The position numbers and the translations under genes were made by a program. The notes below the pieces were generated by a model. The model did not search any database. It was not told the origin of the DNA and worked only from the letters and a program-made list of their open reading frames with translations. From assembly GCA_049519415.1 (NCBI GenBank), contig JBEKQU010000005.1, positions 37,504 to 101,503 on the forward strand: a stretch of DNA of 64,000 nt, given 5' to 3'. This document shows positions 28,247-43,507 of this stretch, in pieces; the stretch's first letter is position 1, and the number at the start of each line of letters is the position of its first letter. This stretch comes from Spirochaetia bacterium. Its GTDB lineage: Bacteria > Spirochaetota > Spirochaetia > SZUA-6 > Fen-1364.

Positions 28247-28597
28247 ATGATGCAGGCGAAGACCGAGCTGGCAAGAGATCCCGTTCTCCTCTCGTTGTTG
28301 GAGCGGATCAGGAGCACCCTCGATCCCGAGCGTGTCTACCTGTTCGGTTCGAGGGCACGGGGTCAGGCAACTCCGGACAGCGACTACGATTTTCTCGTCG
28401 TCGTCCCGCATTCGGACAAGCCCCGCTATCGACGGGATCAGGAGGCGTACCTGGCGCTGTGCGGAAGTGGCGTCGCAAAGGACATCATTGTGCTCACCCG
28501 AGCAGAGTTCGAGTCGTCTCGTCGGGCTGTCTCATCGTTGACCTCCGCGGTCCTCAGCGAGGGGATCCTTCTGCATGAATCAGGAAACGCGAGCTGA
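28247..28597 (+). CDS. nucleotidyltransferase-domain protein (MNT-type antitoxin)
   Basis: LFGSRARGQATPDSDYDFLVVV is the GS...DxD nucleotidyltransferase motif. Confidence 0.7.
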   Translation: MMQAKTELARDPVLLSLLERIRSTLDPERVYLFGSRARGQATPDSDYDFLVVVPHSDKPRYRRDQEAYLALCGSGVAKDIIVLTRAEFESSRRAVSSLTSAVLSEGILLHESGNAS

Positions 28598-28745
28598 AGC
28601 TGCAGCGTGGCTCGCCAAGGCGCGGACGGATTTACGCGCAGCCCTGGCTGATCTGAACGCATCTCCGCCGATCACCAGCGATGCGCTGTTTCACTGCCAG
28701 CAGGCGGTTCGCCGGAACCCGATCTGGCCACGGCAGAGGCGGGCA
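28575..28745 (+). pseudogene. HEPN-domain toxin gene, disrupted (frameshift into Arg-rich nonsense)
   Basis: The N-terminus (AAAWLAKARTDLRAALADL...ALFHCQQAV) matches HEPN. It loses the expected EKALKA continuation. Confidence 0.5.
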
Positions 28746-29022
28746 TGGGAACCGAGGTCCGCCTCCCTGTTCCGCTCGCGCCGATCGCCTCGACGGTCCC
28801 GGCGGCGTCGGCCCCGAGTATCCGCATCTTGGGCCGGAAGAGCCCGCCTGCCATGAAGCGGATGAAGAAGGGATTCGCCCTCATCCTGCGATCATCGCTT
28901 GAGTTGATCGAGGAGGCGCGGACCTTGATCAGGATCTCGTCCTCCGCCGGGGCGGGTTTCTCGACGTCCCTCAAAATGAGGACTGACGGCGATCCGTAGC
29001 TGTCATACACTATTGCTCTCAC
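28672..29022 (-). pseudogene. quinone oxidoreductase/Zn-ADH family N-terminal fragment
   Basis: RAIVYDSYGSPSVLILRDVEKPAPAEDEILIKVRASSIN...ILGADAAGTVEAIG is a classic QOR N-terminus. It breaks down after about 110 aa and overlaps the HEPN fragment. Confidence 0.5.
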
Positions 29023-29129
29023 GCTCGCTGCCTCGCTTGGAAAAACCCATGCCTTGGAATATAGGGCAAGCCGCGCGCTCGGACGCACACACTTAAGTGT
29101 GGTTTCGAGTGTGTTCTTTCGATCGGTTG

Positions 29130-29291
29130 CGGGTCAGGTGCGCGGAAGGGCTCTCCAATCAGGAAATAGGCAAGCGCCTCTTCCTCGCCCTGGACACGAT
29201 CAAGGGCTACAACCGGAGAATCTTCGAGAAGCTTGAGGTCAAGCGGCGCACGGAAGCCATCGCCCGCGGCCGCGAGCTGGGCATGCTGTAG
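29130..29291 (+). pseudogene. C-terminal LuxR-type HTH fragment of a MalT-like regulator
   Basis: LSNQEIGKRLFLALDTIKGYNRRIFEKLEVKRRTEAIARGRELGML is very similar to the C-terminus of the intact regulator at 35817-38540. Confidence 0.6.
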
Positions 29292-29400
29292 CAACCTTCC
29301 CGCCTGTACCGATCTCCCGCATCCCTGAAAACAACACTCAGAACGACACTTTCGTGTCTGCGCGCCGCGGGGCGGAATGGGCATGCTTGCACTATCAAAG
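29235..29400 (+). repeat. left copy of inverted repeat (LuxR 3' end plus downstream leader)
   Basis: About 95% identical to the reverse complement of 35406-35561. Confidence 0.8.
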
Positions 29401-29401
29401 G
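29379..29401 (+). promoter_or_regulatory. conserved 23-bp element GGGCATGCTTGCACTATCAAAGG, copy 1, about 15 nt upstream of the start codon
   Basis: One of three identical copies, each upstream of an RBS and start codon. Confidence 0.45.
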
Positions 29402-29416
29402 TGAAAGGAGAAAATC

Positions 29417-30106
29417 ATGGGAACAACAGAGAAAAAATCGCGGATCCTCGGGCTGGCTTTTCTGATCCAGTTCGTCACATCGTTCACGGGCGGTGTGCTC
29501 GTGCTCCCCATGGCGACCGGGGTGGGGGGCTTCGGTCGGATGGAGAACATCGGCCAGACCATGGCCACCATTGCGAAAAACGCAGGGCTTGTCCGTTTCG
29601 ACATCCTCCTGGAGCTGGTCACCGCGGCCGCCATCATCTTCCTCGGCGGGATGCTGTACGCGGCGGTGAAAAAACAGAACAAGGGACTGGCTTTGACCGC
29701 TTTTGGTCTCTACGTCATGGAAGGCGTCATGATCGCGGTCACAAAACTCGTGCTCTTTGCACTCCTGGCAATCAGCCAGCAGTACATGGCCGCGGGCAAC
29801 CCCGTCTCGCTGGAGCCGACAGCCAGGATGGCATACGAAGTGATGTCGTACTCCTCCAAGATGTTCAATTTCGCCGCCTGCCTGGGCATCACGATCTTCT
29901 ACGCCCTGCTTTACAAGGCCCGCACAGTGGCGCGGCCCTTGACGCTGTGGGGACTGGTGAGCATCCAGGGCGTTTTCGCGGGATTACTGATGGGTCTCTT
30001 CGGCCTCGAGGCACCCATCTACCTCTACGTCCTCTACATCCCCTTCGAGCTCGTGATTGGCGTCTGGATTCTCATCAGAGGCGTGAACAGGGAAGCGGTG
30101 AACTAG
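29417..30106 (+). CDS. DUF4386-family membrane protein
   Basis: 229 aa, multi-TM. N-terminus SRILGLAFLIQFVTSF. RBS AAAGGAG. Confidence 0.6.
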   Translation: MGTTEKKSRILGLAFLIQFVTSFTGGVLVLPMATGVGGFGRMENIGQTMATIAKNAGLVRFDILLELVTAAAIIFLGGMLYAAVKKQNKGLALTAFGLYVMEGVMIAVTKLVLFALLAISQQYMAAGNPVSLEPTARMAYEVMSYSSKMFNFAACLGITIFYALLYKARTVARPLTLWGLVSIQGVFAGLLMGLFGLEAPIYLYVLYIPFELVIGVWILIRGVNREAVN

Positions 30107-30112
30107 CGCAAT

Positions 30113-30135
30113 GGGCATGCTTGCACTATCAAAGG
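30113..30135 (+). promoter_or_regulatory. conserved 23-bp element copy 2
   Basis: Identical 23-mer upstream of the second DUF4386 gene. Confidence 0.45.
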
Positions 30136-30152
30136 ATCACAGGAGGCATTTC

Positions 30153-30845
30153 ATGGACACCTATCGACGATCAGGAATTGTGACGGGGATCTTGTTCATC
30201 GCAGCGGACGCAGCCGGTTTCCTGTCATTGTTCGCGCAACCGCTTCTCAACGCCCCGGACTACCTGACAAAAATCTCCGCGAATGAACTGACGGTCCTCG
30301 CGGGGGCGTTGCTTGTCTTCATCATGGGCTGGGCCGATGCCGGCATCGGGATTTCGATGTATCCGATTCTGCGGAGGCACAACGAAGGCCTCGCCCTGGG
30401 CGCTGCCGGATTCAGGATCATCGACGGGGTCTTCCATTGCATCGGCGCCGTTCTCATCCTCCTGTTGGCGACCTTAAGCCGGGAGTTCATCACGGCGGGA
30501 CCTGCCGATCTGGCGCAGTTCCAGAACCTCGGCGCGCTGCTGAGGGAAGGGCGCACTTGGGTGGGCGATGTGGCGGCTCTGCCCGCCTGGTGCATCGGCG
30601 CGTTCCTGTACTATTCGCTGTTCTTCAAGACGCGGCTGGTCCCTCGCTGGCTGTCCCTGTGGGGGCTCGTCGGGATCACCCTGACTCTAGCCGGCAGCAT
30701 CCTGGTCTTGTTCCGCCAGATCGCCTCCCTGTCGTCCATCCAGATGCTGATGTACCTGCCCGCCGCTCTGCAGGAAATAGTGCTGGCGATCTGGCTCATC
30801 GTGAAGGGATTCAATCCCTCCGCAATCGCCTCGCCGCAGCGCTGA
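30153..30845 (+). CDS. DUF4386-family membrane protein (tandem paralog)
   Basis: Same architecture as the upstream gene. AGGAGG RBS. Confidence 0.6.
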   Translation: MDTYRRSGIVTGILFIAADAAGFLSLFAQPLLNAPDYLTKISANELTVLAGALLVFIMGWADAGIGISMYPILRRHNEGLALGAAGFRIIDGVFHCIGAVLILLLATLSREFITAGPADLAQFQNLGALLREGRTWVGDVAALPAWCIGAFLYYSLFFKTRLVPRWLSLWGLVGITLTLAGSILVLFRQIASLSSIQMLMYLPAALQEIVLAIWLIVKGFNPSAIASPQR

Positions 30846-30875
30846 TGGCTGCGCGGTGCGGCGACGAAGAGCCTC

Positions 30876-31109
30876 ATGAAGTATCAGATAAGGATCGAGG
30901 GCGAGTTGGGGCAGGAATGGGCAGACTGGTTCGGAGGCCCTGCCATCTCTCGAGAGGGAGACGGCATCACGCTCCTGACCTGCGCCGTGGCCGACCAGGC
31001 TGCGCTGCATGGCCTGCTCAGGAAACTGCGCGATCTGGGCCTGCCCTTGCTTTCGGTCAATCGCATCGACGACTACCCCGAGGGGAAGCCCGAGGGAAAG
31101 TCAAAATAA
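30876..31109 (+). CDS. small hypothetical protein (77 aa)
   Basis: ORF with protein-like composition. No motif recognised. Confidence 0.35.
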   Translation: MKYQIRIEGELGQEWADWFGGPAISREGDGITLLTCAVADQAALHGLLRKLRDLGLPLLSVNRIDDYPEGKPEGKSK

Positions 31110-31152
31110 CCATCGCGGCATGGCGAGACCACCGCGACAACAGGAGGTTGCA

Positions 31153-31611
31153 ATGAAATCCAGGGATGTTCTCAGGGTGGCAGGGCCGGCGGCCGTGCTC
31201 TTCGCCGTCGCGCTGCTGATCTCGTGCACCACGACCAATCTGGCGAGCAACAGGACCGGGTGGTCGGATTACGCGACCATCGCGATCAAAGACTACACCC
31301 CCGTCGGAATCGTAAGCGTCGTGAGCGAGGAGGTCACCCAGCGCGGCTTTCTTGGCATCGCCAATTCCCACACGGGTTCGCAGATCACGTACGACTTGCT
31401 CATCAGTGAGGCGAAGAAGCTCGGGGCCGACGACATCATCAACGTCAGGATCGATCGCACGGACGCGAGCCTTCACGGAATCTTCGATTGGCTCATCGGG
31501 TACACCGAGAGGTACGCGTACAACGGCAACGCGCTGGCGATCAAGTACACACAGGCCGCTGCGGGATACATCGCCGACGGTGCCAGCGGTCCCTCCGGCA
31601 TGGGACTGTAG
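31153..31611 (+). CDS. hypothetical lipoprotein
   Basis: Signal peptide with lipobox LLISC. RBS CAGGAGG. Confidence 0.5.
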   Translation: MKSRDVLRVAGPAAVLFAVALLISCTTTNLASNRTGWSDYATIAIKDYTPVGIVSVVSEEVTQRGFLGIANSHTGSQITYDLLISEAKKLGADDIINVRIDRTDASLHGIFDWLIGYTERYAYNGNALAIKYTQAAAGYIADGASGPSGMGL

Positions 31612-31708
31612 CACCAGAGCAGGGACGGCTAGAACAGGATGGCGAATAATCAACATTGAGAGCACGGGTGGCGTGCCTCGGAGGGCGACCTTGGAAAGCA
31701 GAATTGCG

Positions 31709-32557
31709 ATGAAACGGGCGACCACTGGCGAACAGGACAGCATGGGTCTTTACCTGCGGGAGCTGCGCGGGATCCCCCGACTGAACGCCGAGGAGGAACA
31801 GGGCTGCGCGCGGCTCGCGGCCCAGGGTGACCAGAAGGCACGGGAGCGGCTGATCCGGGCGAACCTTCGGTTCGTGATCCTGGTGGCCAAGCGGTACCGC
31901 AACCGCGGCGTTCCGCTGGAAGACCTCATCAACGAGGGCAACATCGGGCTCATCCAGGCGGCGAAACGGTTCGACCCCGAGCGGGGCATCCGGTTCGTAA
32001 CCTACGCGGTCTGGTGGATCCGTCAGGCGATCCTGAAGGCGATTCCAGAGAACAGCCGCCTGGTCCGCGTGCCCAGGAGCCGCGCGGGAGAGCTCGCGCG
32101 TATCGAGACGCTGCGTCACGACGGGCTGATGGAAAGCGGCAGCGAGCCTCGCCTGGCGGAGATCGCCCGGTCCCTGATGGTCGAGGAAGGGGAACTGGTG
32201 GCGCTGATTCGGGCTGGCCAAAGGACGCTCTCGCTGGACAGCCCGGTCACGAACGTGGAGGACTCCGAGTCCATCGGCTCCTGCCTTGAGGACCGGAATG
32301 CTCCGAATCCGGAGGAGGTCCTGGTCGGCGCACTGCTGAAGGACGAGCTCGGTTCGGCCCTGGCCGGGCTTTCAGACCGCGAAGCGGTCATCCTCCAGGA
32401 CCTCTTCGGGCTCGCCGGCCGCGAACGGACCTCGCTGCTGGAGGCCGGCAGGAAGCACGGGTTGAGCAAGGAGCGCGTGCGCCAGATCGAGATGAAGGCC
32501 TTGCGCAGGATCCGCGCCTCGGACAGCGCGTGGCAGCTCGAGGCATACGCGAACTGA
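31709..32557 (+). CDS. sigma-70 family RNA polymerase sigma factor (regions 1.2-4)
   Basis: Region 1.2 (LYLRELRGIPRLNAEEE), region 2 (LIRANLRFVILVAKRY...DLINEGNIGLIQAAKRFD...FVTYAVWWIRQAI) and region 4 (LSDREAVILQDLFGL...LEAGRKHGLSKERVRQIEMKALRRI). Confidence 0.8.
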   Translation: MKRATTGEQDSMGLYLRELRGIPRLNAEEEQGCARLAAQGDQKARERLIRANLRFVILVAKRYRNRGVPLEDLINEGNIGLIQAAKRFDPERGIRFVTYAVWWIRQAILKAIPENSRLVRVPRSRAGELARIETLRHDGLMESGSEPRLAEIARSLMVEEGELVALIRAGQRTLSLDSPVTNVEDSESIGSCLEDRNAPNPEEVLVGALLKDELGSALAGLSDREAVILQDLFGLAGRERTSLLEAGRKHGLSKERVRQIEMKALRRIRASDSAWQLEAYAN

Positions 32558-32758
32558 TGGAGGGCGAAGTCATGATTCGAGTGCTGGGCGTTCATGTTTG
32601 AGCAAACCTTGATGATTCCTGTCGGTGATCCGAAAGGGGTGACGCTTTCGTGGGTTATCAACTGCGAAGGTCATCAGGGAAAGGAGGACTATGGACAGAA
32701 CCTATCTCGTTGCTTGGTCATGGGTGTTTCTTTCAGCATCTCGTAGAGGAGGAAAAAG

Positions 32759-33100
32759 ATGAACGGTATGTTGAAACGGGTGATATTGCTTTTGATCCTT
32801 GTCTTGGCTGTAGTAGCTTGCGCAAGCACCCCTCCTGTCGTTGATTCCGCGCTCATAGGAAAGTGGGGGATACCTGACCCAACAACCGGCAAGGCTTTGA
32901 GACCCATGCTGGAATTTCAGGCAGACGGTACCTATATCATTGGTACCATGGCTTACCGGTTTGAAGCACGTCAAAAACAGGGGTCGTACTGGAATCCGAG
33001 CATTCCATTCATGAAAACGAAGTTCACCTACACGATCACCGGTTCGGATATGAGGATAATTACTGGCGTTGTAGTCTCCGACGTAACCAAGATGGAGTAG
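32759..33100 (+). CDS. small hypothetical lipoprotein
   Basis: Signal and lipobox (VVACAS). 113 aa. Lies in the lower-GC patch. Confidence 0.45.
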   Translation: MNGMLKRVILLLILVLAVVACASTPPVVDSALIGKWGIPDPTTGKALRPMLEFQADGTYIIGTMAYRFEARQKQGSYWNPSIPFMKTKFTYTITGSDMRIITGVVVSDVTKME

Positions 33101-33674
33101 CCATCCAAACATCTGTTTAACAAGGAGAGTCTATGAGAAGCCTTTTGAGCAGAAAGAGGTTGTTGCCTGCCAGGGTCCGTTTCGTAATCCCGCCCGCTGA
33201 GGCTGCGCATCGCTCGCCAGGCTGAGATGCGCTGATCCGCCAGGCAGGTGGCGCATGCTCGTGACAGCTATACGTTCCCTGCGCGGGATTGTGCGTGGTA
33301 GTGGATGGGAATGCCCCGGCCCGGAGCATTCCGACCCATCCGTCCGGCTATCGGAGCCCCTGCCGTTGGGAAAGCCGGCGCCAGGAGGGGTGATCGTGCA
33401 ATCGGGCGTCTCGGAGGGAGCCGGATAATGTGACCTACGTGTTCAAGGACTTGGGGAATGGCCAGGTGGAAACGGCCGTAAGCTCGAAGATGACTCCCGC
33501 GATCACGGTACCTCTCTGGATGATAGAGGCGGCCTTTCCTGGCGCGGGAGCCAATGTCATCCGGAGAATCGTGAAGCTCGCCAAAAACAATCAGCACAAT
33601 GGTTCAAATAGTGTACTTGATATTTTGTCCGAACGATTGCGCGGATATCGCAGAGAACCGGAAGGGAGGAAGCC

Positions 33675-34430
33675 ATGGGCAAGATGGTAAGAATTGGGGA
33701 GGATGTCGAGGGATATGCCGTCCCCGTCCTGAATGAAAGGGAGATACGGGCATCGGCAGGAATGCTGTTTTTAGCCATGCTGCTATCTTATTTGCTGATC
33801 ATATTCAAGGGGAATTTCTTGCTGATCAAGTACGTGATAACCATCTTTCTCGCGGATATGACCATACGCGTATGCGTCAACCCCGGATTTTCTCCATCGC
33901 TAATAATCGGTCGTTTGATAGTAAGGAATCAGACCCCCGAATATGTCGGGGCAAGACAAAAGAGGTTCGCATGGACAATATGCATGGCTTTGTCCGCCAC
34001 CATGTTCGCTTTGATGGTTGTGGCAAACACATATAGCCCGATAACGGGAATCACCTGCTTGATTTGCCTAACTTTCCTTTTCTTCGAGTCGGCTTTTGGC
34101 ATCTGTCTGGGATGCAAGTTCTATCCCTTGTTTTTCAAGAATAAGGCTCACTACTGTCCTGGCGAAGCGTGTGAGGCGAAATCAAGGAAGGGCATTCAAA
34201 AAACATCCAAAGCCCAGATGCTTGTCGTTCTCGGATCCATCGCCTTCATTTTCCTTGCGGTCTTCCTGTTCAATGGAAGCTTCAGCAAGAAGCCCCATGC
34301 CTTGTTTGGAATGGGCAGTTCTATAGGGTCCGATTTGCCCCCTTATGGGCAACCAGCGCTCCGGCTGCCCCCAGGTGCTGCATTGCCCGGTCCGCATAAT
34401 GAATCAACGCGGCGAGGAGAGGCGCTTTGA
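33675..34430 (+). CDS. integral membrane protein, possibly DUF4395 family
   Basis: N-terminus with AVPVLNEREIRASAG followed by 4-5 TM segments. Cys-rich C-terminus. Confidence 0.4.
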   Translation: MGKMVRIGEDVEGYAVPVLNEREIRASAGMLFLAMLLSYLLIIFKGNFLLIKYVITIFLADMTIRVCVNPGFSPSLIIGRLIVRNQTPEYVGARQKRFAWTICMALSATMFALMVVANTYSPITGITCLICLTFLFFESAFGICLGCKFYPLFFKNKAHYCPGEACEAKSRKGIQKTSKAQMLVVLGSIAFIFLAVFLFNGSFSKKPHALFGMGSSIGSDLPPYGQPALRLPPGAALPGPHNESTRRGEAL

Positions 34431-34616
34431 TCACCGGCCGCCGCGGCCATTGCCGCACTACAGCTCGATAATGCTAACATGCAAAATCTCCTGCCTGTTT
34501 CGCGACTCCCCCGGCCTTGCCGCCCAGGGGCTCTACAATGCCGCGCGTATAGCGCGCGCTCGGGGAGAGAAGGACCGGGCTGCCAGGATGGAGCGGAGCT
34601 TCCGCAAGCTCGATGC

Positions 34617-35345
34617 TCAGAGCTCTCCGCAGTAGCGCGCCGAAGTCAGGTCATTCTCAAGCTGGCGCGCCACGGAGCGCGCGGACCTGAGGGCGAGTTC
34701 TGTGAATCCGCGCGCAAGGTCCTCCTCCGACATTTCCGAAAGTATGGTCGCCGTCACCATGTTGCCGACGATCCGTCCCAGGCCGAACATGGCGGGGCTG
34801 GCGGGATCGTTCACGATAATGTCGCGACGCCATATAAGTTCACCGCCGGCGCTGCGAGCCAGACCTGCAGTCAGGTGGATGCGCAGGGACACCGCACTCC
34901 CGAAAGAGTGCGCCCGGATGCCCCAATCCTGGATCGAAAGCACGAGCACATAGTCGGCCCGCATTCCCTCCGGTTCCTGCTCTGCATCGAGTGCCGCTGC
35001 GCACGCTGCGTAGGATTCCCTTAAAAGAATCTCCGGCACGTCGACAGACGCCAGGGCGCTGCGCATCGTCCCCGCGGCTTTTTCCGCCTGCCCCGCCTTT
35101 GCAAGATTGGTCATCACGCTGAGTGCGCTGTAGACCGGCGTGTGTTTGTCCAGCGCCACGTAATAGGAGACATCCACCCGCGGCTCGGGAGGGGTCTGCA
35201 TGTCGGCGGCAAGTGTCGCGCCCTTGAAATCGTACCTTTCAAGCCTGTTGACCGTTGAGCATGAGGCGAGCAGGGCTGCCAAAGTCGCACACGCGGCAGC
35301 GGCCAGGATTTTTTTTACGGCGTTCATGATACGCTTCTTTTCCAT
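34617..35345 (-). CDS. hypothetical lipoprotein
   Basis: Signal and lipobox LLASCS after MEKKRIMNAVKK. The ORF extension upstream (to 35453) covers a duplicated leader remnant. Confidence 0.5.
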   Translation of the reverse strand: MEKKRIMNAVKKILAAAACATLAALLASCSTVNRLERYDFKGATLAADMQTPPEPRVDVSYYVALDKHTPVYSALSVMTNLAKAGQAEKAAGTMRSALASVDVPEILLRESYAACAAALDAEQEPEGMRADYVLVLSIQDWGIRAHSFGSAVSLRIHLTAGLARSAGGELIWRRDIIVNDPASPAMFGLGRIVGNMVTATILSEMSEEDLARGFTELALRSARSVARQLENDLTSARYCGEL

Positions 35346-35561
35346 TTCACAATCCCCGATCGTCGATAGGTGTCCATGACATGCCTCCTGTGATTCTTTG
35401 ATAGTGCAAGCATGCCCATTCCGCCCCACGGCGCGCAGACACGAAAGTGTCATTCGGAGTGTTGTTTTCAGGGATGCGGGAGATCGGTACAGGCGGGACG
35501 GCCGCTACAGCAAGCCCAGCTCGCGGCCGCGGGCGATGGTTTCCGTGCGCCGCTTGACCTC
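35343..35561 (-). repeat. right (inverted) copy of LuxR-3'/leader repeat, extended by a duplicated 5' end of the second DUF4386 gene
   Basis: The reverse complement matches 29235-29400 and then 30113-30185. It includes the remnant start MDTYRRSGIV. Confidence 0.8.
35405..35427 (-). promoter_or_regulatory. conserved 23-bp element copy 3 (minus strand)
   Basis: Reverse complement of GGGCATGCTTGCACTATCAAAGA. Confidence 0.45.
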
Positions 35562-35726
35562 GAGTTCGCGCCGGCTCAACGGATCGGTGAGCGATGGCGA
35601 GAGAGAGGAAGCGGATTCGGTGATGGCGCGCTTGCGCGTCTGCTTCTCCGCCGCGAAGGCCGTCAGCAGCTTGCCCGCATAGGCCGGCATTATTTCCGTT
35701 GGAGCCACGGAGAGGAGCCTGGCCAT
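35505..35726 (-). pseudogene. LuxR-type HTH C-terminal fragment with internal deletion
   Basis: ...PLSRRELEV|KRRTETIARGRELGLL. The core HTH between the two 'LEV' repeats is deleted relative to the intact gene. Confidence 0.55.
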
Positions 35727-35816
35727 CGGGGCTCCCTCAGATTGTCCGGGAGATACTGGCCGACAAAGGCGTAGGGATCAGCGATCCGAGCGGCAGGGGA
35801 AGTGAATCGTTAGGTT

Positions 35817-38540
35817 TTGCCGCTTTATAAATTCTGGGGCGTGTCTTATAATGGATTTGTGCCTGCGCCAATTTTGGCCACGAAACTATATATCCCACCA
35901 CTGCGACCTAAAATTGTCCTCCGTCCCCGCCTGATCGAGCGGCTGAACGAGGGTCTCTCTTCGAATCGCAAGCTGACGCTCATCTCTGCCTCCGCTGGCT
36001 TCAGCAAAACCACGCTGGTCAGCGAATGGATTGCTGATTCCAAGCGACCAACTGCCTGGCTATCGCTGGATGAAGGGGATAACGATCCAGCATGCTTCCT
36101 GACGTACCTCGCCGCTGCCTTGCAGACGATTGCACCGAATATTGGAGCAGGGGCGATTGCTGTGTTCCAATCCCCTCAGCCACCCTCCACCGAGTCGATT
36201 TTGACAGCCCTGCTCAATGAAATCACCACCATCCCGGACACTTTCATCCTCGTCCTTGACGACTACCACGTGATTGACGCCAAACCTGTTGACCAGGCCC
36301 TCACTTTTCTGCTCGAGCACCTGCCGCCGCAAATGCACCTGGTCATCGCCACCCGTGAAGACCCGCCACTGCCCCTGGCCCGCCTGCGTGCCCGAGGCCA
36401 ACTCACCGAGCTGCGCGCCGCCGACCTGCGTTTTACCCCCACTGAAGCCGGCGATTTTCTCAACCAGGTGATGGAGCTGAACCTCACGGTGGAAGACATT
36501 GCCGCACTCGAAGCCCGCACAGAAGGCTGGATCGCCGGTCTGCAATTGGCTGCGCTTTCAATGCAGGGATGTCAGGATGCCGCCAGTTTCATCAAATCGT
36601 TCACCGGCAACCACCATTTCGTGCTGGACTATCTGGTAGAAGAAGTCCTGCAACGCCAGTCCCAAAGCATCCAGACTTTTCTGCTGCGCACTTCAATCCT
36701 CGACCGCCTGTGCGGCCCGCTGTGTGATGCTGTTCTGCGTTCTCCTTCCGCTTCCGGGCAGGAGACCTTGGAAAATCTCGAACGCGCCAACCTGTTCATT
36801 GTCCCTTTGGATAATGAGCGGCGTTGGTACCGCTATCACCATCTTTTTGCCGAATTGCTGCGGCAGCGGTTGCAGCAAAGCGCATCTTCAGGGAATGAAG
36901 ACATGGCCGAATACCACATCCGTGCCAGCCGGTGGTATGAAGACCATGGCCTGGAGATTGAAGCGTTTCAGCATGCGGCTGCGGGCAACGATATTGTGCA
37001 CGCCGCGCGGATCATTGAAGGAAACGGCATCCCTCTGCACTTTCGTGGTGCGGTGGCCTCCATGCTGGACTGGCTGGCGTCGTTGCCGACAACGGTGCTG
37101 GATGCGAAACCCTCGTTGAGGGTGAGGTTTGCCACGTTGTCGCTGGTTGCCGGACAACCGACCGGTATCGAAGAAAAACTGCAAGCGGCTGAGGCGTCCT
37201 TGGCTGCCGTTCTGCAAGGCGCCGAGCCAGACAACAAGACCCGCGATCTGATTGGACAAATTGCTGCCTCAAGGGCTACCCTGGCGCTCACCCGCTACCA
37301 GCCGGCAGCCATGATCACCCAGGCTCGCCGTGCCCTGGAGTATCTGCCCCCCGACAACCAGCTTTCCCGTTTCAGGGCAAGTTGGACGATGGGGATGGCC
37401 TACCAATTCCGGGGAGAACGCACGGCAGCCAGCCAGGTCTATGCAGAAGCATTGTCCATCGCCCAGGCCGCCGGGAATGTTCTCAACACCAGTTTGGCTA
37501 CACTCTGCCTGGGCCAACTGCAGGAACTGGACAACCAGCTCCATCCGGCGGCCGAGACCTACCAGCGTTCCCTGCAGCTGCTTGGCGATCATTATTTACC
37601 CCCCAGCGCCAGCGAAGCCTATCTTGGCATGGCCCGCATATTCTACGAATGGAACGACCTGGAGGCCGCTGAGCAGCACGGGCAGCAGGCCTTGCAGTTG
37701 GCGCGACAGTATGACCGCGTGATTGACAGATATATTCTCTCTGAGGTGTTTCTGGCCCGCCTGAAACTGGCCTGTGGCGATGTGGCCGGCGCGGCCGCCA
37801 TGTTGGCGGAGACCGCGCAGTCCGTGCGACAGAATAACTTTGTGCATCGGATACATGAGGTGGCTGCCGCGCAGGTGCTTGTCCTGCTTCGACAGGGCGA
37901 TCTGGCGACGGCCGCTCAGTTGGCCAAGACCCACGAACTCCCCAGCAGCCAGGCCAGGGTACATCTGGCCCTGGGAGACCCGTCCGCAGCGTTGGCTTTG
38001 CTTTCGCCATTGCGCCAGCAGATGGAAGCCAAGGATTGGCAGGATGAACGGCTCAAGGTGATGGTTCTACAGGCGGTCGCGCTCCATGCGCGTGGAGAAA
38101 AGGAAAAGGCAATTCAACTGCTGGGTGAGGCCCTGGCACTGGCAGAGCCGGGCGGCTTTATCCGCCTCTTTGTTGACGAAGGCGAGCCAATGCGAATGAC
38201 GATTTCTGATTTTCGATTGTCGATTGAAAAGCAACCGCACGGCCAGGAGCATAATCTGCTCGGTTACGTAGATAAGCTCCTGGCTGCTTTTGCACAACCG
38301 GCGGCCTTGCCGCAATCGAAAATCGAAAATCAAAAATCCAAAATGCTTGAGCCATTGAGCCAACGCGAGTTGGAAGTACTGCAGCTTATTGCCCAGGGAC
38401 TCTCGAATCATGAGATTGGTGAGCGGCTTTTCCTTGCCCTGGACACGGTCAAAGGGCACAACCGCAATATTTATAGCAAACTACAGGTTCAAAGACGTAC
38501 CGAAGCCATAGCCCGAGCCCGCGAGCTGGGTTTGCTGTAA
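35817..38540 (+). CDS. MalT-like STAND NTPase / LuxR-family transcriptional regulator
   Basis: The N-terminus (ATKLYIPPLRPKIVLRPRLIERL) and Walker A (SASAGFSKTTL) are followed by TPR-like repeats and a C-terminal LuxR HTH. The start is ambiguous (TTG 35817, GTG 35859 or TTG 35874). Confidence 0.85.
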   Translation: MPLYKFWGVSYNGFVPAPILATKLYIPPLRPKIVLRPRLIERLNEGLSSNRKLTLISASAGFSKTTLVSEWIADSKRPTAWLSLDEGDNDPACFLTYLAAALQTIAPNIGAGAIAVFQSPQPPSTESILTALLNEITTIPDTFILVLDDYHVIDAKPVDQALTFLLEHLPPQMHLVIATREDPPLPLARLRARGQLTELRAADLRFTPTEAGDFLNQVMELNLTVEDIAALEARTEGWIAGLQLAALSMQGCQDAASFIKSFTGNHHFVLDYLVEEVLQRQSQSIQTFLLRTSILDRLCGPLCDAVLRSPSASGQETLENLERANLFIVPLDNERRWYRYHHLFAELLRQRLQQSASSGNEDMAEYHIRASRWYEDHGLEIEAFQHAAAGNDIVHAARIIEGNGIPLHFRGAVASMLDWLASLPTTVLDAKPSLRVRFATLSLVAGQPTGIEEKLQAAEASLAAVLQGAEPDNKTRDLIGQIAASRATLALTRYQPAAMITQARRALEYLPPDNQLSRFRASWTMGMAYQFRGERTAASQVYAEALSIAQAAGNVLNTSLATLCLGQLQELDNQLHPAAETYQRSLQLLGDHYLPPSASEAYLGMARIFYEWNDLEAAEQHGQQALQLARQYDRVIDRYILSEVFLARLKLACGDVAGAAAMLAETAQSVRQNNFVHRIHEVAAAQVLVLLRQGDLATAAQLAKTHELPSSQARVHLALGDPSAALALLSPLRQQMEAKDWQDERLKVMVLQAVALHARGEKEKAIQLLGEALALAEPGGFIRLFVDEGEPMRMTISDFRLSIEKQPHGQEHNLLGYVDKLLAAFAQPAALPQSKIENQKSKMLEPLSQRELEVLQLIAQGLSNHEIGERLFLALDTVKGHNRNIYSKLQVQRRTEAIARARELGLL
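38201..38347 (+). repeat. intragenic inverted repeat (~20 bp arms) with 4x heptamer TCNAAAA tandem array
   Basis: tgattttcgattgtcgattg matches the reverse complement of caatcgaaaatcgaaaatca. It lies in the linker before the HTH domain. Confidence 0.5.
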
Positions 38541-38854: not shown

Positions 38855-41800
38855 ATGAAGAACGCCCGAGTTTGCATGGGGCCGCGGTATGCCGCGGCAT
38901 GCCTGTTCGCCCTTCTTGCGGCGGCTGCAGTTCCAGCCTTCTCGCAGAACGCGTCCATGGACCTTTATGATCCCGGAACGCTCGCCTCCCTTGGCAGTGG
39001 CGCCGCAGCCGGTGCCCTTGGGGGAATCCCTGGCTTGCCAGGCGCGTCCGTGTTCTCCCTTGCCGTATCTCCGGGCGCTAGCGCGCTCAACCCGGCCGCT
39101 GCCGGCTGGCTGGAGCGCATCACGATCGACGCCAGCTACCTCGGTCTGGCCGGCCTCGGGCCCAGCACGGGGTGGGGCAACCTGGCCAACCTGGGCGCCA
39201 GCTTCCCCACACCGTACGGCGTGATCACGGCGAGCGGGCGCTACCTCGGCTCCACCTTCCCCACCCTGAACGTGGGATCGATGGGGTCATTCAACCTTTC
39301 CTTTGCGAAGGACGTCTATCGCGATCTTTCCGTAGGCGCCGGCCTTGGCTTCCAGATCGGCCAGGACTGGGGACTCGGGCTGGACCTCGGGTTCGTTCAT
39401 GCTCCGGGTGACCTCGGCTTCCTGCGGAACTTCCGCTGGGGAGCCGCGATACGGGGGATCGGGAAGGGCTACAACACCACCAGCATCACCGACGGAGAAG
39501 GCACCGTTCCGCCGTGGTTCACCCCGGACATCGGCACCAGCTTCGACCTGGTCTCCACGGTCCCCTTCTCCCTCTCCGTTGCATCGGACCTGAGCTTCCC
39601 GGCTTTCAGCGACGTGCGCTTCGCCCTGGGTCTGGGGATCGGCATTCTCAACACGGTCAGCGTCCAGGCGTCCTATGCCTTTGACCTGAACGACACGCTG
39701 GCGGGTACCGCCAACTCGTTCCCATTCGGCTTTGGGCTGTTTGCCACCATCCCCATTCAGGGTGCCGGCGACATGGCTGTCACTTCGGCCGGGGCGCCGC
39801 TCTCGGGCGGGGTCTGGGGCTTTGGGCTCGGGACAACCTTCAGCTTGGGAAAGATCGATCGCTCAGCGCCGGCCATCACCCTGGCGAGCACGGAGGATGC
39901 GTACATCTCGCCGGGAACGCAGAGCGCTGACCAGATGCTCTCCGTTCCCCTGACCATCACGGACAGCCGATACCTCAAAGGGTACCGCCTGATCATCTAC
40001 GACAGCACCAGCAAGGTGGTGCGAACCATCGAGACGGTGGATCAGGGACCCACCAGCTCTGGCATCCGCAACTTTTTTGACCGGCTGTTCAGCGCAAAGA
40101 AGAGCATCCCCGTGCCTCAGGCGCTCACCTGGGACGGCAAGGATGACTCAGGCCAGCAGGTTCCGGATGGGACGTACACCTACGCGGTTGAGGCCTGGGA
40201 CGACAACGGGAACCAAGCCCGCATCGACCCCAAGGTCATTGTAAAGACGGTGCCTCCGCAGGTCAGCGTGAGCGCGCCGTACCTGGAGTTCTCCCCAACC
40301 GGCGAAGGAACCAGAGGAAGCCTCACCATCGAGCAATCGGGTACCTCGGAAGACCTCTGGGTTGGGACCATCTACGATTCTTCCGGCAACGAGGTCCGCC
40401 AGTTCCGCTGGACCAACGAACCGCCGCAGACCTTCACTTGGCAGGGCAAGGATACCAACGGCAAGCTCCTTCCGGACGGGACCTACACCTACAAGATCAC
40501 CAGCACGGACCGGGCCGGTAACACGGGAACCGCTACCCTTGAAGGGATCGTCATCAACACCCAGGCGACCCCCATAGATCTCACGACCGATCTGCCGGCG
40601 TTCTCTCCCGGTGGGCAGAGTCCCAAACAAGTCATCCATCTGATACCCACCGTCAAGGTAAAGGACGGCATCGACCACTGGTCCCTGGTGGTGACGGATC
40701 TAGCAGGCTCGGTGAAGCGGACGTACACCGGAACCACGCTGGCGCCCGAGACCATTGCCTTCGATGGCAAGGATAACGAGGGTACGGTGCTGCCGGAGGG
40801 CATGTACCGCGCAACGCTGAACGTCAACTATCGCAATGGGCACAACCCCACGTTGGATTCTCCCGATTTCCTGCTCCGCGTCACTCCTCCCTCGGCAACG
40901 GTCAAAGCGCAGTACCTGGAGTTCTCGCCGGATGGGGTAGGTACGCAGACAAAGCTGCCCCTGGAGCAGAACGGCTCCACGGAGATCCTCTGGCAGGGCT
41001 CCATGGCGGACAGCACAGGCAATACCGTCCGGTCCTACCAATGGAATGAGAGCGCGCCGAAGAGCTTCTCCTGGGACGGCCGGGACGACAACGGAAAGCT
41101 CGTGCCGGATGGCGCCTATACCTATCAGCTCACCAGCACGGACCCCGCGGGCAATACGGGCGGCGCGGAGGTTGCGGGCATCGTGGTGAACACGGTCCCC
41201 ACGCCCGTATCCTTGGCGGTGGATTACTCCGCTTTCTCTCCGACCGGCAATAGCTCCAAGAACATGTTGACCTTCTCTTTGACCGCGCCGGTCAGCCGCG
41301 GCATGACGCGCTGGACTTTGGCAGTCCGGGATCGAACCGGCAAGACCCGGCGCAACTTCTCGGGCACCAGCCCCCTGCCGGCCACGCAGGTCTTTGACGG
41401 CAAGGACGACGACGGCGTTGTCCTTCCCGAGGGGCCTTACAGCGCCACGCTTGCCGTGGTGTACGCGAACGGGCACGCTCCATCTGGAGACTCGCCGCAG
41501 TTCGTCATCGACGTGACTCAGCCGACCGCAACGGTCAGCTCTGACTACGCGGTGTTCTCCCCGATCGGGCAGGGCACCCGGAACCTGGTCACCTTCACCC
41601 AGAGCGCGACAAAGGACGCGGCCTGGACCGGCGTCGTCAAGGATGCGAAGGGGACACCGGTGCGCACGGCAAGCTGGAAGGGCAGGCCGGACGTGAAGTT
41701 CGTTTTCGATGGCCACGGGGATGACGGGAAGCTCTTGCCGGACGGGAAGTATACCTACACGCTCGCCGGGATCGACAACGCCGGCAACATAGGCGGCGCA

Positions 41801-43507
41801 CCCCCCCTGGCCCTGGAGATCGACACCACGGCTACTCCGGCGATCGTTTCCACGGACCTCACCGCGTTCTCACCGAACGGCGACGGCGTGAAGGACACCA
41901 TCAAGATCATTCCCTCCCTCAAGGTCACGACGGGGATCGATTCCTGGGAGCTTCGAGTCAAGGATTCCAAGAGCACGGTGATCCGGCGCGTTTCGGGCAC
42001 CAACTCGGCGCCCGGCGAGTTCACCTGGGATGGCCTGGATGACTCGAAGATCAAGGCGCCGGACGGCACCTACACTTCGGAGCTGGAGGTGCTGTACCGA
42101 AACGGCAACCGCCCGATAGCCCGGACCAACCCGTTCGTCATCGACACGCACTATCCGGCGATCACCGTGACGGCGGACACGCTCCTGTTTGCCCCGACTC
42201 CTGACAGCGCGGTCCAGTCCATCACGATCCACCAGGACTCCAGCGTCGAAGATCAGTGGACCGGGCAGATCCAGGACTCCTCCGGAAAGCCGGTCCGCGC
42301 GTTCTCCTGGAAGGGCAAGGCAGCAGACTTATCCTGGGACGGCACGGATGACAACGGCAATATCATGGCCGACGGCGTGTACCAATACGTGGTCACCTCG
42401 ACCACCCTGGCCGGCAGCAAGACCGAGAAGACGCTGACCGGTCTCACAATCGATACCCGTCCCACCCCGATCTCCATCCAGGCCGCCTCGGAGGGGCTGT
42501 CGCCCAACGGCAACGGAATCCGCGATACCATCGGGCTGAACCTGTCGGTGGGGCTCGCCGACGGGATCAAGAGCTGGAAGCTGTCGATGGTGGAGGCTTC
42601 CAAGGGGGTGCAGAAGACGTTCAACGGACTTCCTCCGGTGCCTGCCTCTATTGTCTGGGACGGCAAGACCGATAGGGGAACCGTGGTCGAAGGGACGTAC
42701 ACGGCCCAGTTCGAAGTACGGTACAGCAAGGGCAGCCACCCCACGGCATCCTCGCAGTCCTTCCTGCTCTCCGTGAGTCCCCCGAAGATCGACCTGCAGG
42801 CCGCGCCACTTCCGTTCTCCCCTGATGGAGACGGCTCCAATGATACGATCACCCTTACGCTGAACGTCACCGACCCGTCGCCCGTGGATTCCTGGGATAT
42901 CACGGTGAACGACCCGGAGGGACACTTCTTCTCCGACTTCTCGGGCAAGGGCGCTCCGACTCCGATCACCTGGGACGGAATGTCGTCGAACGGCGAGCTG
43001 GTGCAGGCCGCGTCGGACTACACGATGAAGGTCACGGTCAGGGACGCGCTGGGCAACGTGGGCACGCTCACCCAGACGCTCCCCGTCGACGTGCTGGTAT
43101 TCCGTGAAGGAGACAAGCTGAGAGTCCGCGTGAGCAGCATCATCTTCAAGGCGGATACCGCGGACTACGTGAACGTACCCGCGGACCAGGCCCAGAAGAA
43201 CATGCAGACCCTGGCCCGGCTGGCCCAGATCTTCCAGAAGTACGGCCAGTACAAGATCCGCATCGAGGGCCACGCCGTCATGGTGAACTGGGACAAGCCC
43301 GAGGCAGGGAAGAAGGAGCAGGACGCCGTCCTGATCCCGCTCTCCAAGGCTCGCGCCGAAGCCGTCAAGGCGGCGCTGGTCAAGCTGGGGATTGACGCAA
43401 GCCGAATGACCACCGACGGTCTGGGCGGGGCTGTACCGATCGTGCCCTTCAGCGATCTGGAGAACCGGTGGAAGGACCGACGCGTGGAGTTTATCCTGGT
43501 GCGATAG
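38855..43507 (+). CDS. giant exported OmpA-family protein with Gly-rich N-terminal domain and ~10 FlgD-Ig-like repeats
   Basis: Signal peptide (AAAAVPAFSQ). The repeats are FSP(N/T/D)GDG...WDGKDDxGxxLPDGTYTY...TDxAGN. The C-terminal OmpA-like peptidoglycan-binding domain ends RRVEFILVR. Confidence 0.75.
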   Translation: MKNARVCMGPRYAAACLFALLAAAAVPAFSQNASMDLYDPGTLASLGSGAAAGALGGIPGLPGASVFSLAVSPGASALNPAAAGWLERITIDASYLGLAGLGPSTGWGNLANLGASFPTPYGVITASGRYLGSTFPTLNVGSMGSFNLSFAKDVYRDLSVGAGLGFQIGQDWGLGLDLGFVHAPGDLGFLRNFRWGAAIRGIGKGYNTTSITDGEGTVPPWFTPDIGTSFDLVSTVPFSLSVASDLSFPAFSDVRFALGLGIGILNTVSVQASYAFDLNDTLAGTANSFPFGFGLFATIPIQGAGDMAVTSAGAPLSGGVWGFGLGTTFSLGKIDRSAPAITLASTEDAYISPGTQSADQMLSVPLTITDSRYLKGYRLIIYDSTSKVVRTIETVDQGPTSSGIRNFFDRLFSAKKSIPVPQALTWDGKDDSGQQVPDGTYTYAVEAWDDNGNQARIDPKVIVKTVPPQVSVSAPYLEFSPTGEGTRGSLTIEQSGTSEDLWVGTIYDSSGNEVRQFRWTNEPPQTFTWQGKDTNGKLLPDGTYTYKITSTDRAGNTGTATLEGIVINTQATPIDLTTDLPAFSPGGQSPKQVIHLIPTVKVKDGIDHWSLVVTDLAGSVKRTYTGTTLAPETIAFDGKDNEGTVLPEGMYRATLNVNYRNGHNPTLDSPDFLLRVTPPSATVKAQYLEFSPDGVGTQTKLPLEQNGSTEILWQGSMADSTGNTVRSYQWNESAPKSFSWDGRDDNGKLVPDGAYTYQLTSTDPAGNTGGAEVAGIVVNTVPTPVSLAVDYSAFSPTGNSSKNMLTFSLTAPVSRGMTRWTLAVRDRTGKTRRNFSGTSPLPATQVFDGKDDDGVVLPEGPYSATLAVVYANGHAPSGDSPQFVIDVTQPTATVSSDYAVFSPIGQGTRNLVTFTQSATKDAAWTGVVKDAKGTPVRTASWKGRPDVKFVFDGHGDDGKLLPDGKYTYTLAGIDNAGNIGGAPPLALEIDTTATPAIVSTDLTAFSPNGDGVKDTIKIIPSLKVTTGIDSWELRVKDSKSTVIRRVSGTNSAPGEFTWDGLDDSKIKAPDGTYTSELEVLYRNGNRPIARTNPFVIDTHYPAITVTADTLLFAPTPDSAVQSITIHQDSSVEDQWTGQIQDSSGKPVRAFSWKGKAADLSWDGTDDNGNIMADGVYQYVVTSTTLAGSKTEKTLTGLTIDTRPTPISIQAASEGLSPNGNGIRDTIGLNLSVGLADGIKSWKLSMVEASKGVQKTFNGLPPVPASIVWDGKTDRGTVVEGTYTAQFEVRYSKGSHPTASSQSFLLSVSPPKIDLQAAPLPFSPDGDGSNDTITLTLNVTDPSPVDSWDITVNDPEGHFFSDFSGKGAPTPITWDGMSSNGELVQAASDYTMKVTVRDALGNVGTLTQTLPVDVLVFREGDKLRVRVSSIIFKADTADYVNVPADQAQKNMQTLARLAQIFQKYGQYKIRIEGHAVMVNWDKPEAGKKEQDAVLIPLSKARAEAVKAALVKLGIDASRMTTDGLGGAVPIVPFSDLENRWKDRRVEFILVR
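39935..43060 (+). repeat. diverged tandem array of ~330-bp coding repeats (alternating A/B FlgD-Ig subtypes)
   Basis: Ten protein-level repeats in an A-B-A-B pattern. The DNA is not identical. Confidence 0.65.

Follow-up and report, generated by a model that had tools for sequence, protein, structure and literature searches.

The locus considered here raises the question of why two nearly identical copies of the 3' end of a regulatory gene face each other across some 6 kb of bacterial DNA. The window, by which we mean the whole stretch that was analysed, comprises 64,000 nucleotides (nt) from a Spirochaetia bacterium (NCBI GenBank assembly GCA_049519415.1, contig JBEKQU010000005.1, positions 37,504 to 101,503 of the forward strand), and all positions below are those of the window unless another contig, designated by an L number, is named. 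Each arm of the inverted repeat carries the end of a MalT-like LuxR gene, hereafter LuxR2, followed by the leader that lies downstream of it. A preliminary description of this DNA had proposed that the repeats could mediate inversion of the segment between them. We consider it probable that the repeat is instead a decaying inverted duplication of the LuxR2 3' end together with a LuxR-dependent promoter, one copy of which would have captured a lipoprotein gene; our confidence is higher for the anatomy and the history of the locus and lower for the function of the promoter.

A repeat search of the window recovered two arms of 169 nt, 95% complementary to each other and separated by 5995 nt (for the positions of this and other features, see Table 1), in agreement with the two inverted copies of about 95% identity that had been reported. 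The longest exact inverted match was 42 nt, and it did not exceed 18 nt in 30 dinucleotide shuffles. Each copy had been described as containing about 60 LuxR codons; a LuxR 3' end with its leader is indeed present in both arms, but the shared repeat includes 20 codons only. The same search gave a second inverted pair (30106-30183 and 35347-35424; 78 nt, 94%), which means that the right copy extends into the first 10 codons of the second of two DUF4386 genes (DUF4386-2; the first is DUF4386-1), and the duplicated DUF4386 5' end of the preliminary description is thereby accounted for. A 30-nt direct repeat (29372-29401 and 30106-30135) was also found, and the leader tail is therefore present a third time, before DUF4386-2.

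The window belongs to a 71-kb JGI metagenome contig, and its source is an uncultured Spirochaetota organism of peat or soil. The assembly is from short reads, in which a repeat of 169 nt might be collapsed or chimeric, and the preliminary description had itself allowed for such an artefact. However, both junctions of both arms were found in L002, L010, L079, L004, and L100: the left junction was recovered from a second sample (L002, 99.96% identity), both junctions were recovered from a third sample (L010 at 99.9% and L079 at 97%), the whole architecture is reproduced in L004, a 1.04-Mb contig of a long-read metagenome-assembled genome of about 89% identity, and the right side is reproduced in L100 at about 86% identity. 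As five independent assemblies thus reproduce the junctions, the repeat is real, and the probability that we give to an artefact is close to nil.

The source of the arms is apparent from relatives in which LuxR2 is intact (900 amino acids (aa), with 62% aa identity to LuxR1, the MalT-like regulator next to the repeat) and is followed by the leader on the same strand and then by DUF4386-2; this order is found in L003, L005, L006, L012, L022, L030, L035, L036, and L078. The right arm of the window is colinear with this simple order, and the left arm has the same order with DUF4386-1 inserted; an intermediate is kept in L003, in which 26 codons of DUF4386-2 stand before DUF4386-1. The left LuxR2 remnant holds about 50 C-terminal codons, including the helix-turn-helix (HTH), and its aa sequence matches the C-terminal end of the intact LuxR2 of L003, L005, and L006 at 92-94% identity; its upstream part was deleted between GCGGAAGG and GCAGAAGG, a lesion specific to the window. 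The right remnant comprises the last 17 codons and about 55 codons from further upstream; the deletion that removed the HTH core runs from one copy of CTCGAGGTC to another. One outer breakpoint (...CGGACAATCTGAGGGAGCCCCGATGGCC), which adjoins the divergent start of LuxR1, is common to the right arms of the window, L004, L100, and L099, whose internal LuxR2 deletions differ in each, the stop codon being lost in L100; on the left side, likewise, the arms of the window, L004, L081, and L013 have a common outer breakpoint beside an alcohol dehydrogenase (ADH) fragment and are internally different. The LuxR2 remnants are thus truncated with respect to the intact genes of L003 and L006 and carry independent disabling lesions in each lineage, and by comparison of these sequences we regard them as pseudogene pieces under no constraint.

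The leader behaves otherwise. Among the four right arms, the region from the motif described below to the ATG is 88-96% identical, versus 65-86% for the region from the stop codon to the motif and 72-93% for the spacer before LuxR1, a pattern in which the leader appears to be kept conserved while the LuxR2 remnant erodes. All leaders from relatives contain the invariant block AACACTCCGAAnGACACTTTCGTGTCT, and the core of the leader is a 27-nt motif (AACACTCAGAACGACACTTTCGTGTCT) with a 14-bp palindrome (GACACTTTCGTGTC). A scan of metagenome contigs with an exact pattern of 22 specified bases gave 90 contigs of soil, sediment, and peat origin, in many of which the proteins are only 35-60% identical to those of the window. 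Enough upstream sequence was available for 81 loci; in 63 of them, the C-terminal end of a MalT-like LuxR gene lies on the same strand within 200 nt upstream of the motif, often only 12 nt from it. The first gene after the motif, scored for 76 loci, encodes a member of a 77-aa protein family (38 loci), DUF4386 (24 loci), a lipoprotein (3 loci), or a zinc-dependent ADH (1 locus). Beyond the motif, a hexamer, cATgCT, follows the palindrome after 23 or 24 nt in all 53 distinct leaders (53/53), with A2 invariant and T3, C5, and T6 conserved in at least 90%; gaps in the leader alignment are needed only after this hexamer. Both arms of the window score 64-65 bits with a sequence model of the element. 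A variant copy, pointing to the left, was matched by the model at 29113-29072 (-) with 10.1 bits (E 0.036), and such a divergent copy is also present in L008 (22.9 bits), L007, L081, and L013; in L013 and L081 a second 77-aa gene and the ADH fragment come after it, in the order seen in distant soil contigs. In distant contigs, the motif and the 77-aa gene are succeeded by a full ADH gene. Neither the motif string nor DUF4386 was found in the searchable literature. In L044, L037, L065, and L057, the motif and a 77-aa open reading frame (ORF) are followed by NmrA/SDR-like, nitroreductase-like, and quinone-oxidoreductase-like enzymes, as read from their N-terminal sequences only. The distant motif contigs give a hint of a possible redox or detoxification regulon.

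We read the leader as a putative LuxR-dependent promoter and operator, of which the function, the binding of LuxR, and the start sites are predictions from sequence. When the hexamer is taken as the -10 element, the centre of the palindrome in the left arm falls at -42.5 (the centres obtained being -42.5 and -43.5), and the geometry would then fit that of a class II promoter, with a dyad-symmetric site about 40-43 bp before the start that overlaps a weak or missing -35 element. LuxR1 is the candidate activator of all three promoters (the two arms and the variant copy), as judged from L064 and L068, in which the motif comes after genes of LuxR1 type. A scan for the sigma-70 consensus called no promoter at the leaders and gave no more sites than it did in shuffles; the lack of a call would be expected for a promoter without a -35 element. 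Two other assignments were tried and rejected: a sigma-54 promoter in TGGGCATGCTTGCA, for which the spacing from GG to GC is 10 rather than 12, and TTGCAC as a -35 element, which directly precedes the ribosome-binding region.

The conservation of about 60 nt to a very high degree, with an invariant hairpin (GACAC-UUUC-GUGUC), could also be expected of a structured RNA, either riboswitch-like or a processing element of the 5' untranslated region, that acts without any DNA operator, and in some distant leaders a run of pyrimidines beyond the hexamer can base-pair with the ribosome-binding site (a reading of the alignment only). However, RNAalifold with 72 leaders returned only the invariant hairpin of 4 bp, with a covariation of 0; a hand-picked stem was 65% paired, versus 61% in shuffles and 58% after a shift of three columns; and Rfam gave no match at E ≤ 1. 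Both halves of the stem and also the loop are invariant, as they would be in a palindrome bound by a protein, the spacing to the -10-like hexamer is fixed, and the length varies only beyond it. Because of the invariant palindrome and loop, the fixed spacing, and the variable length thereafter, an operator with a promoter fits better, and we regard the structured RNA as very unlikely. The variety of the genes after the motif (77-aa protein, DUF4386, ADH, lipoproteins, nitroreductase-like, SDR-like), with breakpoints clustered around the leader, might instead bring to mind a site-specific recombination site at which downstream cassettes are swapped; yet no recombinase stands beside any locus examined, the only related gene being a transposase fragment of an insertion sequence (IS) in L099, and the junctions vary by lineage and consist of microhomology deletions with no fixed crossover point, which leaves this alternative highly improbable.

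The proposal that the repeats could invert the segment was not borne out: the orientation is single, no recombinase is present, and the same promoter would face inward in both arms. The orientation of the window was found in every assembly that spans an arm and both of its flanks (the window contig, L002, L010, L079, L004, and L100), these being consensus assemblies, from which a minority inverted form could escape, a point that tells against our interpretation. No recombinant junction was found among the 90 motif contigs, and no recombinase, integrase, or transposase was found in the Pfam records of the called genes at 20153-40845 or in the ORFs of the segment. The promoter-like leader is the same in the two arms and is directed into the segment from each side, so that after an inversion every gene would again stand behind a promoter of this kind, and the flip would be silent with respect to regulation. 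Nothing here points to a programmed inversion switch, and the locus lacks every feature that defines one.

The arms are nevertheless sufficiently long and alike to recombine, and 169 nt at 95% with an exact stretch of 42 nt would suffice for occasional homologous recombination, so that RecA-dependent inversion of the segment of about 6 kb, with both orientations in the population, has to be weighed. The two arms are 94.6% identical in the window and 74.5% in L004, versus 83-85% for positional orthologues, and the identity matrix of the arms fails to separate the positional orthologues, left from right. The hexamer allele GGGCATGC is shared by the right arm of the window and all left arms, and the allele GGACATAC is found in the right arms of L004, L100, and L099 and in the single-copy LuxR2 loci; the left-type allele in the right arm of the window points to an exchange between the arms. 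The HTH-deletion allele lies in the right arm in the window and in the left arm in L004, L081, and L013. These patterns suggest that gene conversion between the arms of the window is probable, and we do not take them as evidence of inversion. On the other hand, the HTH deletion is flanked by 10-nt direct repeats and can recur independently, and the single orientation, the absence of recombinant junctions, and the silence of a flip speak against inversion, which we therefore hold to be unlikely. A further possibility is that the core of the arms is more than a LuxR operator, namely a new conserved cis-element, either an RNA leader or a recombination-prone 'portable promoter' tied to MalT-like 3' ends, which would spread by placing copies of itself before new genes, and that the arms still exchange and occasionally flip the segment; we think this quite unlikely.

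Several points weigh against the decaying duplication with a LuxR-dependent promoter. The -10 assignment is based on position, the invariant A2, and the conserved T6 only, and C5 is atypical of a sigma-70 hexamer. Promoter function and LuxR binding are both predicted from genomic association. The invariance of the motif is in part due to construction, as the scan pattern fixed 22 of the 26 motif bases, and the true motif family may be more variable than the scan shows. In 18 of the 81 motif loci there is no recognisable LuxR end just upstream, and in the window no motif follows LuxR1, whose role as an activator was deduced from L064, L068, and an identity of 76% in the HTH region. Finally, the arms may have come from a local duplication or from juxtaposed modules, and the arrangement in L073 suggests the latter.

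For the decaying duplication that we favour, the following course of events may be proposed. The repeat would be what an old inverted duplication left behind, or else the joining of two paralogous modules, and the duplicated unit would have consisted of the LuxR2 3' end, the leader, and the first codons of DUF4386-2. LuxR2, a paralogue of LuxR1, would have died in both copies, the remnants being eroded by deletions, and the part retained would be the leader, as an activator-dependent promoter with a palindromic operator in the 27-nt motif, followed 23-24 nt further on by a -10-like hexamer. The left copy would drive DUF4386-1, DUF4386-2, the 77-aa protein, and a lipoprotein; the right copy would have been recruited to drive the captured lipoprotein gene at 34617-35345 (-); and the third, variant copy would be directed at the dead ADH gene.

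Evidence on the capture comes from the junctions. In the window and L004, ten DUF4386-2 codons run out of frame over the lipoprotein's own start, with the junction GATTGTG| common to both. In L100 (3915-4726), the lipoprotein is joined in frame, at its lipobox, to the first 21 or so DUF4386-2 codons, which results in a chimeric signal peptide (MDTYRRSRIVTGILLIAATAALLSSC), and in L099 the same right arm precedes another membrane protein. Homologues of the lipoprotein (57-63% identity) are flanked by housekeeping genes, away from any LuxR gene, and in L101, a relative of 81% identity represented by a short contig, the lipoprotein is without a leader, which fits the capture. A leader copy would thus have been set before the lipoprotein gene, and the intervening junk would then have been trimmed independently in each lineage. 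The right-arm homologue in L099 is adjoined by the IS-type transposase fragment (1-693 of that contig).

The preliminary description had also concluded that the site underwent repeated recombination, and this is supported by the relatives, which show at least five arrangements of LuxR genes, leaders, and cargo together with lineage-specific deletions. LuxR1 is upstream of the cluster in L007, L008, and L013, and downstream of it in the window, L004, L009, L017, and L088; in L073 it is divergent from the leader of a full DUF4386-2, and in L064 LuxR1 and LuxR2 are convergent. In L009, L017, and L088 a duplicated leader stands before the 152-aa lipoprotein. As a separate observation, L079 (corresponding to 28933-31040), from another sample, encodes a DUF4386-1 protein identical to that of the window and a DUF4386-2 protein of only 93% identity, which suggests possible recombination between strains within the operon.

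Table 1. Positions of the arms, leader elements, and genes in and around the segment
Feature	Position	Strand	Remarks
Left arm	29232-29400	+	Last 20 codons of dead LuxR2 and leader, to the ribosome-binding site of DUF4386-1
Right arm	35396-35564	-	Last 20 LuxR2 codons and leader
Third leader-tail copy	30106-30135	+	Hexamer region only, without operator; before DUF4386-2; weak model match at 30106-30123
27-nt motif, left arm	29333-29359	+	Palindrome at 29345-29358; proposed LuxR operator
27-nt motif, right arm	35437-35463	-	Palindrome at 35438-35451
-10-like hexamer CATGCT, left arm	29382-29387	+	23 nt past palindrome; predicted start about 29394, palindrome centre about -42.5
-10-like hexamer CATGCT, right arm	35409-35414	-	Predicted start about 35402
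Variant third promoter (putative)	29050-29113	-	Palindrome CACACTTAAGTGTG (29088-29101), 24 nt, TATATT (29063-29058); points left at truncated ADH
Left LuxR2 remnant	29141-29291	+	GerE HTH, profile positions 14-54 of 57; Pfam GerE fragment spans 29097-29291
Right LuxR2 remnant	35505-35738	-	Linker region and last 17 codons; outer breakpoint common to L004, L100, L099
DUF4386-1	29417-30106	+	Pfam
DUF4386-2	30153-30845	+	Pfam; ancestral first gene after leader
77-aa protein	30876-31109	+	Large uncharacterised family; commonest post-motif gene in other contigs
152-aa lipoprotein	31153-31611	+	Own leader copy in L009, L017, L088
About 2 kb missing from relative L004	31605-33651	+	Sigma factor, 50-aa ORF, 113-aa lipoprotein; partly low G+C (0.50)
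RpoS/RpoD-like sigma-70 family protein	31709-32557	+	Pfam; under every NCBIfam equivalog cut-off
113-aa lipoprotein	32759-33100	+	Inside the about 2 kb that L004 lacks
DUF4395 membrane protein	33675-34430	+	Low G+C; common to L004 and L100
242-aa lipoprotein	34617-35345	-	Behind right leader copy
17-codon ORF	35324-35377	-	First 10 DUF4386-2 codons, out of frame across lipoprotein start codon
LuxR1	35817-38540	+	Pfam; sole intact MalT-like regulator in window
Truncated zinc-ADH pseudogene	28672-29088	-	ADH_N only; downstream of variant promoter

Gene families were assigned by Pfam profile search, and the gene content given previously (a GerE fragment, two DUF4386 genes, a sigma-70 family protein, DUF4395, and an intact MalT-like LuxR) was matched; the low-GC patch was likewise found in the G+C profile, with values of 0.47-0.50 at 32600-33200 and 33600-34300. 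The two DUF4386 (PF14329) matches cover the whole profile (positions 1-210 of 210) and score 74.2 and 141.6 bits, the Pfam gathering score being 27.6. The tandem DUF4386 paralogues that had been described are both present, but as the two are only 28% identical, they are old paralogues and no recent tandem duplication. The 77-aa family comprises 1669 sequence clusters, with the names given for the listed members all being 'hypothetical protein', and among the matches listed in a search with the 77-aa protein there were only close Spirochaetota relatives. No Pfam or NCBIfam match above threshold was obtained for the small ORFs and the lipoproteins.

LuxR1 matches PF17874 (1.6e-81) and PF00196 (3.3e-18), with PF25873 (WHD_MalT) on record, and its residues 20-904 align to positions 3-896 of 903 of the NCBIfam MalT model; it thus has the features of a MalT/LAL-type STAND activator, namely a MalT-like TPR sensor region, a C-terminal GerE HTH, and similarity to MalT over the full length. 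As a true MalT orthologue it was not called, its score of 461.7 bits being below the NCBIfam equivalog cut-off of 537. The part of LuxR1 that codes for the linker contains a 26-nt inverted repeat (92%; 38201-38226 and 38313-38338) with GATTTTCGATT-like units and a locally low G+C of 0.53. Directly after LuxR1, 38876-43507 encodes a surface protein of 1543 aa that contains FlgD-Ig repeats, has an OmpA domain at its C-terminus, and resembles the Leptospira adhesin Lsa66 below the cut-off. At 28247-28856, a nucleotidyltransferase (NTP_transf_2/Polbeta) gene is overlapped by an ORF with only the first ~35 HEPN residues, and the pair looks like a degraded MNT-HEPN toxin-antitoxin, as far as may be judged from these matches.

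In class II promoters of the LuxR type (the lux box, and the tra box of TraR), the site is centred at -42.5. The leaders resemble them in the palindrome about 42-43 bp before the predicted start, in the want of a recognisable -35 element, and in the adjoining gene for a regulator with a GerE HTH. Unlike these systems, the regulator here is a MalT-like STAND protein of 900 aa and not an acyl-homoserine-lactone receptor, and unlike the lux box, the element consists of a 14-bp palindrome with an extra upstream AACAC half-site directly after the stop codon of the regulator gene, the likeness being one of sequence. LuxR1 is like MalT of Escherichia coli in aligning end to end with the MalT model and in having the MalT-like TPR and GerE regions. 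The MalT boxes of E. coli read GGGGA(T/G)GAGG, and for an oligomerising activator such as MalT several sites per promoter are expected. LuxR1 differs from E. coli MalT in falling under the equivalog cut-off, the motif is unlike the MalT box, and the cargo is unrelated to maltose use. Invertible DNA switches include fimS, hin, shufflons, and the invertible promoters of Bacteroides; the locus is like these in that inverted repeats enclose a promoter-bearing segment of a few kb, and unlike them in that a site-specific recombinase is lacking, the inward promoters lie in the repeats themselves, only one orientation is found, and the repeats are derived from a pseudogene and are decaying. The locus is also like promoter capture via segmental duplication and pseudogene decay, a general process of genome evolution in which a regulatory copy comes to stand before an unrelated gene and the flanking coding remnants are eroded by lineage-specific deletions; in contrast to the usual case, the copy here is inverted and about 6 kb from its source, and in L100 it reached a chimeric signal peptide.

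The repeat itself is an ordinary scar, and the conserved operator-promoter with its regulon is undescribed, although of a familiar kind. The value of the repeat lies in its pointing to a 27-nt motif with a hexamer at a fixed spacing, which stands, letter for letter the same, beside MalT-like genes in at least 90 contigs. The motif and LuxR would make a candidate regulator-operator pair for an uncharacterised regulon, of which the proposed targets (DUF4386, the 77-aa family, and several lipoproteins) are without known function, and the locus may serve as an example of the growth of a regulon by the copying of its promoter, in one lineage (L100) with a chimeric signal peptide.

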